DNA of 64,000 nucleotides from positions 26,102,001 to 26,166,000 of the forward strand of contig OX597829.1 in assembly GCA_951406725.2 (NCBI GenBank), read 5' to 3'. This stretch comes from Octopus vulgaris (Eukaryota). Below, one piece after another: positions 18-10,618 of the stretch; position 1 is the stretch's first letter, and every line of letters starts with the position of its first letter. The position numbers were made by a program, and so were the translations under genes. The notes beneath the pieces were generated by a model. That model was given only the letters and a program-made list of their open reading frames with translations. It was not told the DNA's origin and did no database searches.

Positions 18-290
18 GATGACTCCCCTTCACAAATACTGAGAGGACACAGATAGCCAGCTGGAGGAGATATCTTCCTGGGGCTACAAACTACAGTAGC
101 ATCCACCCTTATGGGTAAGCCATATTCAAATGGCAAATATGCGTCACGATGTGTTACCGCTACTGTTTATGACTCGCTCTGAGATTTATCATTGTTTGAT
201 TTCACTTTTTCGATATCAGTGTCAATCGACACTGGAAAAAGTATATGTATTTGTGAGGGGATCTGACTTCTCGTCGACAACTATGATTGT
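18..290 (+). repeat. Copy 1 of a ~340-350 bp hairpin-rich repeat unit, interrupted by the Tx1 element
   Basis: 18-193 aligns almost perfectly with 5717-5903 apart from one ~11-bp indel. It ends in the left TSD at 271-290. Confidence 0.85.
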
Positions 291-517
291 TATTCGTCTA
301 GGGACCCCTCTTTCATCTGCGTTTTGAGAATTTTGCTGCCTTTTTGTTGAGTGAGTTCGTATTTTTGTTCGTCGTTGTTTGTGTTTACTCGTGAATTGAA
401 CAGTTGTCCGTTGTGTAACAGTAATTTTCGCCCTACGGGGCGGAAAATTCTGTGTTTAAACATTGTCATTACCTTCGAGGTAATTTTTTTGAAACATTTG
501 TTCTCATAATTTGAGAA

Positions 518-1953
518 ATGGAGTTCGACTTGGCGTCGAGGAGCGACTTTCCCGTGATGGGAAAAGGCGAACAAAAGGATACCGAAGTCAAAAAACAGTC
601 TTTTTCGGCCGCAGTGGGCGGAACTGTAACGGATGTAGAATTTAAGATTGAACAGTTATTCGAATACCGGAACTTGGTAAAAACGGAAGGCAATGAAATT
701 AAACTGGTACCGCCGCAAGCGAAGGTACAGGAAATAAAGGCAAAGACAGTTGTATACAAAGTTTATAGCAACAAAGAAAAAAAAATAATGGATGTCAAGA
801 ACGAGATAGTAGAAAAGTGCTTGTCCCCGGTGTGGAACAAAATTCGCCACGTTGTTCGAGGTGCTCGCAGCGCTACCGTTGAAGCACATTTCGACTCGGC
901 TGATGTGGCAAGAGAGGTGTCATCAATGACCTTGAAAAATGAGGATATCATGTTGCTACCTTCGTATATGGGGAAAAGAACAGCCAAACTATATGTAGAG
1001 GATATACCAAGAGGGTATGATATAATGTGGGTAGCAGCGGCAGTCCTGCACAACGTAGAGCGGGAAGTTTCAATTCTGCAGATGAGAAGGAAAGAGGAGG
1101 TGCACTGGAAAGGACAAGTGCTAGAACTCCTCGTTCAAGCAGAAAATAAGATATTAGAAAACTTACCCGATAGGGTATTCAATGAGGAGGGGACTTCAAT
1201 GAGAGTGTCAGTGGAGGGGCGCAGACCTAGGTGCTTCAAATGTGGCGAAAAGGGTCACGTCCGGTCAAACTGCATAAAAAAAAGAGAATCAACGAAGCCC
1301 CTCCTCAAAGTGCTTCAAACACTGAAAAAGAAAAGGCGGAAAAGGAACCCAAGACTGCGACAAGGAAAGGAACCGAAACGGAAGATGAAAACGAACAAAT
1401 GGAATATACACAGGTGACACACAAAAGAAAAAAAGATAACACCCTGAACTCCCCTCCCCAAACAAAGAAAAAATCAGCAAACACCGCAGAGATACATACA
1501 AAACAAATTCCCCAGCCCTACCCCCACGGCACTGTATTCATTGGAACACAGTTCGCCAAGCCCCTCCCCATAAAACAAGATTTGAAAAAATTGATAAAAA
1601 AAAATGAAAAGATTATAGCATTTGACGAGAAGAACGATAGGGTGTACAAGTATTTCAAATTTTCAAAATTTAAACTATTCAGTAAGTCTACAGACACAAA
1701 ATCAACCACTCGCTTTGCAAAAATAAAGGAAGACGAGTGGAAGGAAAAAACACTACAAGAACATTTAAAGAATAATCTTATCAGAGATGTAACGAATGAA
1801 ATACTGGAGGGTAAACTTATTATAACCCCGGCAACCACACCTACCCAGAGCCCGATGGCAACGCCGGTTAAGAGCCCTGCAGCTACGACCACAAGGGAGG
1901 AAGAAGGGGAAGCAGGCAGATTTAAACTGTCATGCTCCCTGTCCCAACCGTAA
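518..1953 (+). CDS. Tx1 ORF1 (gag-like zinc-knuckle protein), frameshifted at the A8 run 1276-1283
   Basis: ORF 518-1417 contains CFKCGEKGHVRSNC (CX2CX4HX4C) preceded by an L1-like 'RVSVEGRRPRC'. The -1 frame ORF 1231-1953 continues to a stop just before ORF2. Confidence 0.8.
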
Positions 1954-1980
1954 GTTTATTTATTTTTTCTCTCTCCGACA

Positions 1981-4900
1981 ATGGCAAAGCTGGGTTGTGT
2001 GAATGTGCGTGGAATGGGGTCGAAATGGAAACAAATTTGTTTCCTGAACGACCTCACGACACACGGAGTGGACGTAGCTATTGTAACCGAGTCCAAGATG
2101 AACGGGGCCCAAGCGTTCTCGCCTCTTCTAAATGGTTTCGAGAAATTTATTTCTCCTAGCCGAGGAAGAGGAAGAGGCGTGGCAGTCCTTATCAGGAAGA
2201 GCTTGGACTTGCAGGTAAGTACTGTCTTTCTGGACCCAGAAGGCAGGCTGGTCGTTCTGGATGTGACCCACGTAAGTAAACAGTCCTTCAGGTTGATAGC
2301 TGTCTACGCTCCGAATGAGTGTAGGCAGGCGGGTTTTTTTCGGAATCTGGAGCACTTTTTAGCGACGTCGAAAACGGTAGTCTTAGTAGGGGACTTTAAC
2401 ACTGTCCTTGAAGCGCGGGTCGACAGTGTTGGCTCAACCAATAGGAAGGGGAACCCTAGCCTCAAGGGTCTACTAGAGAGCTTTGATCTAGTGGACCGTT
2501 ATCGACTGGATGAGCCGAGCGTTCCCCAGTGGACGTGGAGTAACAACGACGGCTCACACAGATCGTATATAGATAGGATATTCGTTAGGAAAAGAGATAA
2601 GGATACATTTAGTTGTCCACAGTTTCACATTGTGCTTTACACGGATCACAAATTTGTGACTTGTAGGGTGCAATTAGATAAGTGCCATAGGCAGGGACCC
2701 GGGTACTGGAAGCTGAACAAGTCTATTTTGAATTGTGAAGACTTCCGTACCCGGATTAAGGTATTAGTACAGAGGGCATTGTGTGGCACCCTCATTAACA
2801 ATAGATGGTGGCACTCCCTCAAAAGAGCCATTCGTTCAGAGTCCATTAGATTTAGCAATCAGCTAAGGTTAGATAGGTCTAGGATAGAGGACGATTTAAT
2901 TAAGAATCTAAACAAGGCAATGGAAGCTGGCTCTGCATCCGGAGTGATGGCGGCAAGGACGGTATTGTATCGTCACCTTAACTCCAAACACGAAGGTTGC
3001 AGAGTTAGAGCTAAGCTACGCGCTGGGAAACGAGAAGGTATTAACGTTGCCGGATGGGCCCGTCGAGTGGAGAGTCAGAGAGGTAACAAAGCTTCAATCA
3101 AATCTTTAACTGACGAACAGGGACAAAAGATCTATGGACAGGAGGAGATGCAAAAGTTTCTTCACCAGCATTTCGCCCGCGCGTTCGGGGGTGGTGTGGC
3201 GCCGGAGCGGGGGAGGGCCTTAAAGGACTTCCTAGCCGGCGGACCGCGGCTCTCGGGGCGTGAGGTGGAGTGCTGTGAAGGAGCGATCACTCCCGCGGAG
3301 ATAGAGGGGGTACTAGCCTGATGCGCCGGGGAGAAGTCGCCGGGGTTGGATGGTCTGCCCTACGAGTTTTACCAAAGTATGCCGGACTTGTTCGGGGGAA
3401 TATTGGCAGGCGTCTACGCGAACTGGCAGCAGAATGGGAGAATTCCCAGTTCTGTAAGCCGGGGAGTGGTGACGCTAATCCAGAAAGACCCGAGCAAGGG
3501 GGATAACATTAGTAATTACAGGCCCATAACTCTACTTAATGTAGAGTTAAAGATTTTGGCCAAGGTGTTGGCAAAAAGGTTGACGATTGTCGTGGAGAAA
3601 CTTGTAGGGAAAGCACAGACATGTGCAATTCCAGGCAGGTCGATCCAGGACAATCTTCACCTTATACGCTACACCTTAGATAGGGTGGGTAAATTAACCG
3701 GCAAGGGTGGGGTAATGGTCCATTTAGACCAAAGTAAAGCGTTCGATAGGGTAGACCATAAGTACCTGGCGACGGTCCTCGAAGCGGCTGGACTGGGCCC
3801 TGAATTTAGCGGGTGGATCTCCGCTATGTATAGCGGCATCAAGTCCACCGTCCAGATAAACGGTTACCTAACGGAACCGTTTTCGATCGAATGTTCAGTT
3901 CGTCAAGGGTGCCCCTTGTCACCACTTTTGTACGTGTTGGCTCTCGAGCCATTGCTGCGAAAGTTGGAGAGGCTGGGAAGTAACCCGGATGAGATCGGAG
4001 GTGGGAGGACGGTTACTGCTTATGCGGATGACGTCACCCTCATCGTGTCCAATGAGGCCCAGCTACCTTGTGTAGAAGATGCTATCAGAGGATACGAGGC
4101 GGTGGCAGGAGCAAGGGTTAACAAGGACAAGTCGGTTGGCTTGCGCCTCGGCACCTGGAGGAGCAAGTCGATATCGTCCAGTGTCGTGGGACACTGGACG
4201 GATGGTCCTGTTAAGTTGCTAGGAGTTTGATTTGGGTCAGACTCCCAAACGGAGAGGAATTGGAGTGAGGTGACAGACAAGGTGGAGGCCATAGTACGGA
4301 CCTGGTCCGGAAGGTCTCTGTCCTTGAAAGGAAGGGCGGAGGTGGCACAGATGTTCATTGCATCTGTAATCACTTACCGCCTGACCGCTGTCCCTTGCCC
4401 CGATTCATGGCTTAGCAAGTTGGAGCGAATCCTTTTCCGCTTTTTGTGGAAGGGAGGAAAGCCACTTGTGAGGCGCTCCGTTTGCTGCCAGGAACCGTTA
4501 AAGGGTGGGTTAGGAATGCCTTGGTTGATGATGCGCAGGCATGCGTTGAGGCTGAAGCATCTCTGGCACCACCTGGAGGGTGATAAGGTGTGGAGTCCGC
4601 TGGCAGGGGAATTTTTCCCGAGACCGGCTTCCTTAGTGAATTTTAAACCCGGTCGCATCAAAAGACGGAATCTGACTTTATGGCAAAAGGAGTGCCGACA
4701 GGCACTCACGCTGATCCACAAGGCGGGCAAGGCCGGCTGCGGAAATACCACATCGGTATTTTATAGCAGGCTGGTAGAGGCAAAGAACGACGACGTCCTA
4801 GGAGGGGCTCTGGGGTTTGACGAAGACCAGCTTACCAACCTGTTTAAAAAGACTTTCAGGACGGGGTATTTGGATAATTTCCAAAGATCCCTGGCCTGGC

Positions 4901-5370
4901 AGTGTTATAGGAATGCTTTACCTGTTCGCGAGAAGTTATCGCGGCACGGAATTTCAGTGCCACCGACGTGTCCAAGATGCGGGTTGGACGATGAAACCGT
5001 CCAGCACGCTTTTGTACACTGTCGGAAGTTGTCAGACTTGATAAGTTACGCAGAACACGTGTTATCGCATCTGGGACGAGTACAGCTGTCGGCTGAGTCT
5101 ATGATTAAGATGATACCGCCAACTGGACTCTCGAAGGAAGGTGAGGCATGTTTTCACTGCACGGTTGCAGTAGTAAAAGAATGCATGTGGCGTACAAGAA
5201 TGGAAGGAGTCGCAATAGGATCCTTTGTCTCAGGCCCCGGCTTGCTCACTTACTTCAGATATCATCTGAAGAGCAAAATGGGGCTGGAAAAGAAGATCTT
5301 ACCACGAGGTGTGTATGAAAAAAGATGGAAGGAAGTGGCAAAAAAGGTGGGTGTCAGAAACACAGCTTAA
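1981..5370 (+). pseudogene. Tx1 ORF2 polyprotein (APE endonuclease, reverse transcriptase, C-terminal zf-RVT) with two in-frame TGA stops
   Basis: Three ORF pieces share one frame. Motifs: NVRG, GDFN, YIDRIF, TDH (APE); KSPGLDGLP, YRPITLLN, DQSKAFDRVDH, VRQGCPLSP, YADD (RT); GGLG; CPRC...HAFVHC. Stops at 3319-3321 and 4228-4230. Confidence 0.92.
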
Positions 5371-5628
5371 CTATGGATGGAGGAGAGGAAAGAAAAGCTG
5401 CTGGGCCTTATAGGTTGCCGGGGTTTAAAATATATCGGTAAGATCGCAAGTTAATGTAATGTTGTAATGTTCTATTAGTCAATGCAAAGGACAATTTAAA
5501 TACAAATTTTGTATAAGGAATAATCCAAATATTATGGAAAATTTTTAATCGAACCACTTAACTGTTTTTTGTATGTATGTCCTGTATTGTCCTTCTATGT
5601 AATGATTTTATAATCGTAATAAAGAAAT

Positions 5629-5900
5629 TCGTCGACAACCATGATTGTCACACGCTGATAAAAGGTAAACACCTTGAAACTCGGGTACGTGTGTATCATG
5701 TGTTGAAGACGGGGAGGATGACTCCCCTTCACATATACTGAGAGGACACAGATAGTGTGTCTATAGCCAGCTGGAGGAGATATCTTCCTGGGGCTACAAA
5801 CTGCAGTAGCATCCACCCTTATGGGTAAGCCATATTCAAATGGCAAATATGCGTCACGATGTGATACCGCTACTGTTTATAACTCGCTCTGAGATTTATC

Positions 5901-5903
<3 letters not shown>
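5629..5903 (+). repeat. Continuation of the hammerhead-bearing repeat plus copy 2 of the unit
   Basis: 5717-5903 matches 18-193 and ends in (TA)n. Confidence 0.85.
5636..5706 (+). ncRNA. Type I hammerhead ribozyme motif (G8->A variant)
   Basis: CACACG-CTGATAA-AAGGT-AAAC-ACCTT-GAAA-C-TCGG-G-TA-CGTGTG. Stem I is 6 bp, extended by CATGAT/ATCATG; stem II is 5 bp; stem III is minimal. Confidence 0.7.
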
Positions 5904-5955: not shown

Positions 5956-6072
5956 TTTATTTAAAGCAGCAGAAAATTCTACAAAACCTGTTGCTCTGAG
6001 TATCACGTTGCCGTTCATCGGACAGTTTTGTGTGTGTCAGTTTCTATAAATACGTCTAATTTGGATTATATT

Positions 6073-6402: not shown

Positions 6403-6516
6403 TAATCCAAATTAGACGTATTTATAGAAACTGACACACACAAAACTGTCCAATGAACGGCAACGTGAAACTCAGAGTAACAGGTTTTGTAGAATTTTCT
6501 GCTGCTTTAAATAAAG
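5955..6516. repeat. Inverted repeat (arms 5955-6074 and 6397-6516) with a hammerhead-like motif in each arm; Penelope pLTR-like
   Basis: The ~120-bp arms are reverse complements. Consensus of the two copies is CTGT-CCGATGA-ACG-GCAA-CGT-GAAA-CTCAGAG-TA-ACAG (6446-6483 on +, 5988-6025 on -). Confidence 0.75.
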
Positions 6517-6639: not shown

Positions 6640-8320
6640 CTGTACTATCCATGACCTCATCTCCTCCTCTCGTCTCCCCCTACAGCTTCCAACCTCATTG
6701 TCCGCACCCCTCGCACCCCCACAATTTACTTCCCCCAAATCCACAAACCTAACAACCCTGGCCGCCCCATCGTCTTCGCCTGCAACTGCCCCACCGTACT
6801 CATCTCCAGATATCTTGACCGTGTACTTGCCCCCCTAGTGGCTTCCCTCCCCTCTCACATCCATGACACGAACCATGCACTTCGTTTGTTCAACTCTTTC
6901 TCATTCCCTCTAAACTTCTCTTCGCTCTCAACATCCATAGCCTCACCACGAGGGGCTGCGTGCACTCCAAAATTTCCTTCACCTTCGACTCAACCCTTAA
7001 CCTGACACATCCACACTCGTTCGTCTGGCCTCTCACTCAACTGCTTCTCGTTCGCTGGTGATTTTTACCAGCAGATCTCGGAATGAGCATGGGAACGAGA
7101 ATGGGCCTCAACTTTGCGGACCTGTCCGTTGGTTACGCTGAGGCCCAGATATTCTCAAATTTTACTGGTCCAACTCCCGAACTATACGGCCGTTATATTG
7201 ACGACTGTATCGATGCGACCTCACTCTCCCGTGAACATCTAGACTCCTTCCTCTCTTTTGTCAAATCTTTCCATCCTGCACCCAACTTTTCCTGCACTAT
7301 CTCTGACACTTCTGTCTCCTTTCTTGACATTTCGGTCCGCATTCATCACTCCACTCCCACCACCTCCATCCACTACAAACACACAGACTCACACCCATAC
7401 CTCAATTTCTCTTTCTCCCTCCCTTAACACACCAAAATTTCCATCCCCTATTCCCAATTCCTCCGTCTACGTAGGCTCTGCAGTGACGACCACAACTTTG
7501 AAACTCAGTCTCAACCCATGGCTCGCCATTTCATCCTACGTGGAAATCCCCTCACCACTATCCACACTGCTCTTGCCAGAGCACGTTCCGTGGACCGTGC
7601 ATCTGCTCCCCCCGCACCCTCACCTATCACCCCTCCATCCTACCTCCAACGCACCATTCTCCGAGCCTTCCGGCGACTCCAGTCCGACCCCTCCACTTCG
7701 CACATCTTCTCTAACCGATCCCTCCTCTCCTTCAAACGAGCCCACAACCTACGAGACCTCTAGGTCCACAGCTTCTTCCTTAACCCAACCTCCCAACCCG
7801 GCTCGCTCCCCTACTCCCGCCCACGCTGCCGCACTTGCCCTTACCTCTCCAACACCACCCTCCTCATCGGCACCCATCATCGACCCTATCATATCACCTA
7901 CTCCACCTGCACTTCTACCAATGTCATCTATTGCATCTCCTGCTCTCTCTGCCCTTCTCTATACATCGGGCAAACGGGATGCTGATTGGCTGACCAGTTC
8001 GCGGAATACCTCCGAGACACCCGACTCGGCAATGACACCCCGGTCTCGTGCCATTTCCGCTCTACCGGTTACTCTTTGCAACACTTGTCTGTGTTCGGAT
8101 TGTCCTTGCACAGGGGCCATCTGGACTCCCATCTTCGCGTGAACAGGGATTAATCTTCTCTCTTCGCTCCTTTGCGCCACATGGGTTCTCCTCTCCTCTT
8201 CATCTAACCCTCCTCCCCTCTCTTCTCTTCCTCTCACGACCCGATCGTTAAACTAATACATATTTGTGTTGTCAACACCCCCTGTCTTCGTCCTTTGTTT
8301 TTTTTTTTGTGAATTCTTCC
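6640..8320 (+). mobile_element. 5'-truncated, decayed Penelope-like element (RT + GIY-YIG endonuclease)
   Basis: RT motifs MGTRMG.NFADL, YGRYIDD, VSFLDI, YKHTDSH; linker PRCRTC; GIY-YIG 'NVIYCISCSLCPSLYIGQTG'. Multiple frameshifts and stops. Confidence 0.88.

Positions 8321-10562: not shown

Positions 10563-10618
<56 letters not shown>

Follow-up and report, generated by a model that had tools for sequence, protein, structure and literature searches.

The window analysed here is a 64,000-nt stretch of the Octopus vulgaris genome (C16:26102001-26166000; C# denotes coded contigs and L### the loci examined, all in the same genome). Near its start lies a retrotransposon of the L1/Tx1 type, a long interspersed nuclear element (LINE), lodged within a short repeat that carries a hammerhead ribozyme (Table 1). 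The repeat has a non-coding, tandem unit of 352 bp with a type I hammerhead, which agrees with the description of retrozymes that lack long terminal repeats (non-LTR retrozymes) as units of 150-450 bp, and we refer to it as the retrozyme. An inverted, 5'-truncated retrozyme copy adjoins the window just upstream. Further copies were searched for throughout the genome (2.8 Gb, 227 contigs).

Table 1. The retrotransposon and its host repeat in the window; promoter parts, +1 and leader are predicted.
Feature	Positions	Strand	Basis
Host retrozyme, upstream half (unit positions 89-352)	18..270	+	BLAST to natural 352-bp unit of L044
ATCAGT, predicted proximal sequence element of small nuclear RNA (snRNA) type, 58 nt before predicted +1	215..220	+	Same motif and distance before U1, U2, U4
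TATA-like AT-rich box at about -31	242..253	+	
Direct repeat, 5' copy; predicted +1 = 273; 273-290 likely host-derived leader of element RNA	271..290	+	
L1/Tx1-type non-LTR retrotransposon with apurinic/apyrimidinic endonuclease (APE), full length, coding frames broken here	291..5628	+	Open reading frame (ORF) list, Pfam, structure search
ORF1, CCHC zinc knuckle (PF00098), frameshift near 1280	518..1953	+	ORF list, Pfam
ORF2: APE endonuclease (PF03372), reverse transcriptase (RT, PF00078), C-terminal zf-RVT (PF13966)	1981..5370	+	Pfam
3' untranslated region (UTR), AATAAA at 5618-5623, no poly(A) tail	5371..5628	+	
Direct repeat, 3' copy = 5' arm of extended hammerhead stem I	5629..5648	+	
Downstream retrozyme copy (unit 1-275), terminates in (TA)n	5629..5903	+	
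Type I hammerhead fold	5631..5710	+	Descriptor, fold, covariation

An N-terminal APE and an RT in ORF2, together with a CCHC knuckle in ORF1, make up the domain organisation of the Tx1 clade. In the window copy, in-frame stops interrupt ORF2 at 3319-21 and 4228-30. For the intact copy L131, the top match among solved structures was human L1 ORF2p (E 5e-64), versus 3e-25 for R2. A cluster search with ORF1 (Atlas) returned only CCHC/ZCCHC3-like clusters, and no named Tx1 reference was present among 59 homologues or their clusters. As far as these comparisons go, the element can be placed in the L1 superfamily only, and the Tx1 name is provisional. The first-pass annotation of this sequence had noted an AATAAA without a poly(A) tail. 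The same holds beyond this copy: AATAAA (at 5618 here) is kept 5-9 nt from the element end in every family seen, and no A-run of six or more follows the element at any of 30 family-end loci or 30 pattern loci. The 20-bp target duplication that it had described is also real: 271-290 and 5629-5648 agree at 19 of 20 bases, and the match extends no further on either side.

The hammerhead reported behind the element folds as described. Its core occupies 5655-5661, stem II 5662-5675 and the GAAA 5676-5679, with a predicted cut after 5687. The fold has a z of -4.2, none of 200 shuffles folded equally well, and a motif scan of the window gave a sole match, at 5655. At its gathering threshold, Rfam had no hammerhead match anywhere in the window, so the evidence for it is the descriptor, the fold and covariation. 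In a set of 22 target variants, 90.9% of cells were paired and 9/20 pairs showed two-sided change, above slid controls, the structure having been derived from the same sequences and related sequences being able to outdo shuffles. Core covariation includes the replacement of C3-G8 by U3-A8. Cores with U3-A8, as well as U4C variants, are fixed across whole subfamilies (L133, L146, L155, L156 and the targets of family F). The window core, CTGATAA, carries G8A at 5660, a substitution that affects hammerhead activity. Because G8A is rare among the sites of the element's close copies (family A), being present in 1/19 occupied and 0/30 empty ones, the ribozyme of the window copy is probably impaired.

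We then asked where other copies reside, counting with element-side queries. For family A, 40 of 194 candidates were scored and 30 loci were read. Twenty of 21 ends lie at the same junction (19 abut the repeat, and one is followed by the duplication plus another element), and one is off-target. Family B, sampled as the first 30 of 50 pattern matches (24 B, three distant relatives and three chance matches), sits at the site in 24/24 cases, 22 abutting retrozymes and two in tandem. The 30 loci of family H comprise 20 in retrozymes, three tandems, five in U2 genes and two others, that is 23/30 plus 5/30 U2. Among 30 loci of older families, whose ORF2 pieces have about 53-70% amino-acid identity, two lacked a 3' end, 25 of the other 28 end at the homologous point of a hammerhead-type repeat (24 such repeats and one tandem), and three end elsewhere. 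The strict descriptor passed 9 of these 24 targets, the other 15 being assigned by eye through likeness to family members; its background was 0/1054 and 11/1054 windows. Three of the repeat families targeted by older elements have no BLAST similarity to the window's repeat. The available part of PMC4494074 calls a LINE target-specific when more than 20% of flanks share the same target, a share that is exceeded here, with truncated copies and empty sites at the target as well.

The 5'-truncated copies keep the target on both sides and have duplications of their own, and in most of 14 flank pairs the upstream side carries the same subfamily variants as the downstream side. The insertions are therefore independent. 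Mismatches between 5' and 3' duplications, found in about half of 13 family-A pairs, are near the level predicted by copy divergence and were not counted as leader evidence. A mosaic 5' flank occurs at L045/L020 (C20:29.656-29.661 Mb): its final ~70 nt, together with the 5' duplication, are of retrozyme subfamily A2, and the remaining host is A1. The cause may be gene conversion, or else a read-in transcript that extended further upstream; the L045 element is not nearer to A2-resident elements.

An exact 32-mer spanning the empty junction occurs 217 times in the genome, and its reversed control does not occur. Element sequence was found within 1.5 kb of empty retrozymes at 0/30 loci. Given these exact empty sites in element-free surroundings, the hammerhead repeat pre-exists the element and is not part of it. 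The first-pass annotation had proposed a site-specific parasite of a ribozyme-bearing repeat, suggesting that 3' flanks be tabulated and naming a lack of empty sites, or a repeat belonging to the element, as fatal. Most copies do abut the repeat, empty sites abound, and the proposal is borne out. In a retrozyme sample found with a flank query, 6/30 loci were occupied, a share biased by the 17 nt of element end in the query. A second repeat family, one of those without BLAST similarity to the window's repeat, was empty in 16/20 loci, and in the other four the element sat at exactly the same base. In four sets of contigs assembled from sequencing runs, empty-site joints were present in runs of three other organisms; such contigs do not reveal RNA starts, ends or level and were not taken as expression evidence, and no contig bridging the 3' junction was among those listed.

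What distinguishes the insertion point is apparent from its upstream sequence. The motif ATCAG(T/C) occurs at -57..-62 in 19/19 distinct U1 upstream regions, 12/13 for U2 and 4/6 for intact U4, and likewise in 24/29 chosen retrozyme upstreams and 22/30 empty family-A sites. It was found at 0/15 U6 matches and 0/10 non-retrozyme insertion sites, against a background of 0.3%. In addition, TATAWR starts at -31 in 26/30 empty family-A sites. The retrozyme thus has the predicted proximal element common to U1, U2 and U4, at an equal distance from +1, that marks a U1/U2-type promoter. The distance from motif to insertion is nearly constant despite divergent target sequences. These patterns make it likely that the element inserts where transcription from an snRNA-type promoter of the retrozyme begins. 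Newt satellite 2, a hammerhead repeat, has been reported to have an snRNA-type RNA polymerase II promoter (as cited in the accessible part of PMC2220036). The placement of the target in the 5' arm of stem I by the first-pass annotation was right as a location; a better coordinate is the predicted +1, and the lineage is also found at U2 +1. Since the 5' arm of that stem comes first in the predicted retrozyme transcript, the insertion would appear to be 'into stem I'.

The U2 genes provide a view of the element outside its main target. The five family H ends abut U2 model position 1 or its first 14 nt. Two U2 clusters, which lie on separate contigs, contain 20 U2 starts, of which 12 are empty genes. 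All four full-length U2 insertions show the same order: U2 promoter, U2 +1..+14, the retrozyme's first 14 nt, the element and a full U2. Their 14-nt leader has one mismatch to that of the retrozyme-resident copy L311, to which the copies are 99.1-99.6% identical. The simplest reading of these leaders is that the donor RNA likely began at the retrozyme's ATCG. Since full-length U2 copies carry the first 14 nt of the retrozyme, element RNA likely starts at the host +1. A retrozyme-like leader of 11 nt is also present in L110, at a non-retrozyme site. At the other end, 7 retrozyme-like nt (one mismatch) separate the element end of the off-target copy L314 from the target duplication of that copy, so element RNA likely reads through into the target. 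No hammerhead lies downstream of the U2-resident copies. U2 insertions and two 5'-truncated copies have a duplication that stops at about +14/+15, so the cut stagger at the window copy was probably shorter than its 20-bp repeat implies. Compared with the Rfam model, the U2 genes that we read (L293, L296, other copies, C3:20.78-20.84 Mb and C23:43.31 Mb) contain one additional A immediately ahead of the GUGUAGUA that pairs with the branch point.

A very young sister family, C, accounts for 22 of the 44 loci that match the family end exactly. Its copies are ~100% alike, their ORF2 is ~92% identical to that of family A, and tandem arrays reach five or more. Between two intact copies of A and C, 95/1129 ORF2 residues differ, 22 of them within the first 230. 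Family C resides mostly inside a 1.2-kb repeat (TC start, hairpin plus CTAG), which we take from its end signature to be a Helitron and in which no hammerhead was seen. Its loci L092-L100 (C5:29.18-29.21 Mb, C7:112.94 Mb, C9:58.63 Mb, C11:29.50 Mb) have intact ORFs and head-to-tail arrays; the downstream half of this non-autonomous Helitron-like target resembles a LINE 5' UTR plus ORF1 start. L102 (C1:114.657 Mb) is a 65-bp family C 3' fragment with a 78-bp target duplication. A further branch occupies a third repeat at L113 and L115 (C27:22.95 and 23.38 Mb), 81% alike between the loci and possibly the start of a multigene family; L115 has a TATAAA box ~31-36 nt upstream of the insertion. In a tree built from the last 750 nt of 47 rows, which was rooted at its midpoint and has several long branches, hammerhead targeting falls on both sides of the root. 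Such targeting is likely ancestral on this tree, short of demonstrated because at least 5-6 label changes are required.

These comparisons show a site-specific LINE of the L1/Tx1 type that inserts at a fixed point of hammerhead repeats and of some U2 genes; we consider it probable that this point is the promoter start and that the element is transcribed from the host promoter. The host promoter would start the RNA at +1, so that it begins with 14-18 nt of target, and the RNA would continue into the duplicated target. The endonuclease would nick the bottom strand at about +1, preferring the context YC|ATC, and the read-through tail could then pair with the primer, giving a precise 3' junction without poly(A). 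After a top-strand cut at about +14/+15, the copied leader would anneal there and produce uniform 5' junctions, as for R2. The duplication would restore behind the element a ribozyme that is complete but promoter-less. Cleavage and polyadenylation in the target, past the conserved AATAAA, would form the 3' end of the RNA, with hammerhead cleavage optional. We regard such an end as the most likely one, because AATAAA is conserved and the residents of U2 and Helitrons are free of hammerheads.

Several observations weigh against this scheme. The four U2 copies are 99.3-99.7% identical to each other and have one shared leader variant, so they may amount to a single switch event. Four full-length copies at foreign sites (L129, L115, L104, L106) have no retrozyme leader, and 3' carry-over is known from L314 alone. 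Family C, the youngest seen, resides in a Helitron that lacks the ATCAG(T/C) motif. None of 20 U1 loci and none of 6 intact U4 loci is occupied although they bear the motif, so the promoter alone is insufficient. The T-rich 5' UTR could contain a promoter of its own. Finally, +1 and the RNA ends are predictions from DNA.

Two other accounts of the site deserve consideration. The element might target the ribozyme itself and need the hammerhead to cut 59 nt beyond the element end if the RNA 3' end is to form, much as the first-pass annotation had imagined when it joined read-through with an RNA end set by the host ribozyme. The duplication does always restore the whole of stem I, the core covaries (including C3-G8 to U3-A8), hammerheads are targeted by families with 53-70% ORF2 identity whose target repeats are mutually not BLAST-similar, and poly(A) is absent from every junction checked. 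Moreover, snRNA-type promoters couple poorly to polyadenylation. However, no hammerhead follows family C or the copies in U2, every family seen keeps AATAAA 5-9 nt from its end, the window core has G8A, the only 3' carry-over is 7 nt rather than 59, and tandems insert where just the duplicated 14-20 nt is common. Read-through has one direct case (L314), whereas an end made by the ribozyme looks unlikely. About as unlikely, in our estimate, is targeting by position rather than by DNA sequence, with promoter-bound SNAPc/TBP tethering the ribonucleoprotein at +1. Dictyostelium TRE5-A and yeast Ty3 insert at fixed positions relative to the start of small-RNA genes, at RNA polymerase III targets via TFIIIB; here the predicted promoter is of U1/U2 type and factor tethering is putative. 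Such tethering would fit the nearly constant motif distance in diverging targets, the tendency of families to use retrozymes of their own subfamily group, and TATAWA at -29..-36 in 3/9 non-retrozyme sites versus a background of 1.4-5.8% (a post hoc count). It fits poorly with unoccupied U1 and U4 loci beside the ATCG-starting U2 genes in use, the missing motif at all 10 non-retrozyme sites, off-target junctions several of which still begin ATC or TCT, and tandems of families B and H in either order at one duplication. Since U1 and U4 are unoccupied, sequence plus RNA pairing is favoured over pure promoter tethering. A broader picture, which we find doubtful, would have an old LINE lineage guided to +1 of ribozyme retroelements by snRNA promoter factors, the 5' end of its RNA made by the promoter and the 3' end by either the restored hammerhead or the U2 3' box. 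Such a lineage would be a hyperparasite that follows one retrozyme family after another and sometimes reaches snRNA genes.

The remaining two accounts concern the relation between element and repeat. Under one, the element is cargo, a single ancestral insertion that Penelope machinery multiplied along with the retrozyme, or else the repeat is the element's terminal repeat. Both flanks do nearly always show the same repeat, and one locus (L045/L020) has a mosaic 5' flank. Yet there are the 217 empty sites, elements 96-99% alike reside in retrozyme subfamilies ~85% alike, 5'-truncated copies have their own duplications, and insertions occur in U2 genes and unrelated sites; with the empty sites, U2 insertions and truncated copies, the account is largely refuted, and we give it almost no credence. 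Under the other, the RT of the element mobilises the retrozyme in a LINE-SINE-like partnership (SINE, short interspersed nuclear element), as had also been suggested at first pass. The two are closely associated physically, and none of 30 GIY-YIG loci (30 of 148 scored matches) held an autonomous Penelope partner whose terminal repeat matches. Against this, 23/24 distinct empty retrozyme loci end in (TA)n, and 12/24 have an inverted 5'-truncated partner, always with one end near unit position 230 and the other near 275. The retrozyme shows partial tandems, an inverted 5'-truncated copy, a terminal tail of ~45 bp and (TA)n sites, which together are the marks of a Penelope-mobilised repeat; PMC8557442, in its available part, lists Penelope-type marks including a tail of 30-40 bp. 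GIY-YIG elements with open frames of 781 aa exist in the genome. Because the insertion marks of the retrozyme are Penelope-like, the RT of the element is probably not its mobiliser, and a partnership seems very improbable.

A young GIY-YIG Penelope-like family (L248, L253, L267 and many more) has the 781-aa frame, and ATTGG and TGATGACGTC motifs abound in its 3' repeats; the hammerhead descriptor found no match in this family. In the window, 6655-7005 holds a fragment resembling the start of a Penelope-like RT by its motif IHKPNNPGRPIV; it had no Pfam match.

We compared the system with known ones. The U2-targeting LINEs Keno and Utopia reportedly use an internal site in U2. Here, the main target is the retrozyme, and the U2 insertions, a recent side-branch of retrozyme targeting, lie at U2 +1 (model position 1) with a full U2 regenerated downstream. 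Insertion into U2 genes is what they have in common, and Keno and Utopia share one U2 site with each other (PMC4640811, in part). Tx1-clade LINEs (Tx1 in Tx1D, Tx1-Mar in Mariner-N4, Kibi, Koshi) likewise combine an APE+RT ORF2 with a CCHC ORF1, insert at a fixed point in another multicopy repeat, form tandems parted by one duplication and switch targets between sister families (PMC4494074). They differ from our element, which has a hammerhead retrozyme as its target and enters it at the predicted +1 of the retrozyme promoter. The legend to Fig. 3 of that paper gives unnamed 'satellites' as a Tx1 target, among which a hammerhead satellite could be. R2 resembles our system in its host transcription, its ribozyme near the junction, the uniform 5' junctions given by upstream target RNA (excerpts of PMC3774820) and the priming aided by 3' target RNA, pairing by read-through RNA raising R2Ol insertion (excerpts of PMC6530143). 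R2 has its own HDV-like (hepatitis delta virus) 5' ribozyme and a restriction-like endonuclease, whereas here the hammerhead is 3' and host-owned, being host sequence at empty sites, and the 5' end is likely the promoter's start. The target resembles non-LTR retrozymes and newt satellite 2 in its 352-bp non-coding tandem unit, type I hammerhead with a 2-bp helix III and snRNA-type promoter (PMC7229834, bioRxiv 10.64898/2026.07.22.740005, PMC2220036). The accessible parts of the first two make no mention of a site-specific LINE within retrozymes. Our literature search, with Repbase and most subscription papers outside it, listed no paper describing a LINE that targets hammerhead repeats or the snRNA +1. 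A 2026 octopus repeat annotation (PMC13282606) counts L1-Tx1 families, and its available part never uses the words hammerhead, ribozyme or nested.

These results would add ribozyme retroelements, entered at their likely start site, to the classes of target known for site-specific LINEs. They would also show where invertebrate retrozymes have their promoter and likely start, the hammerhead being predicted at the extreme 5' end of the transcript. In the U2 genes, a target switch seems to have been caught in the act, with the donor leader still attached. Families A (retrozyme) and C (Helitron) provide natural, nearly matched enzymes with different targets, so the gain and change of specificity in an APE LINE can be directly tested as a matter of DNA sequence, RNA pairing or promoter factors.

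Elsewhere in the window, inverted repeat arms of ~100 bp at about 5960-6065 and 6405-6515 enclose microsatellites directly after the retrozyme. A SINE-like dispersed repeat of 237 nt has four copies, at 10563, 19368, 28906 and 38504 (62-81% to the first).

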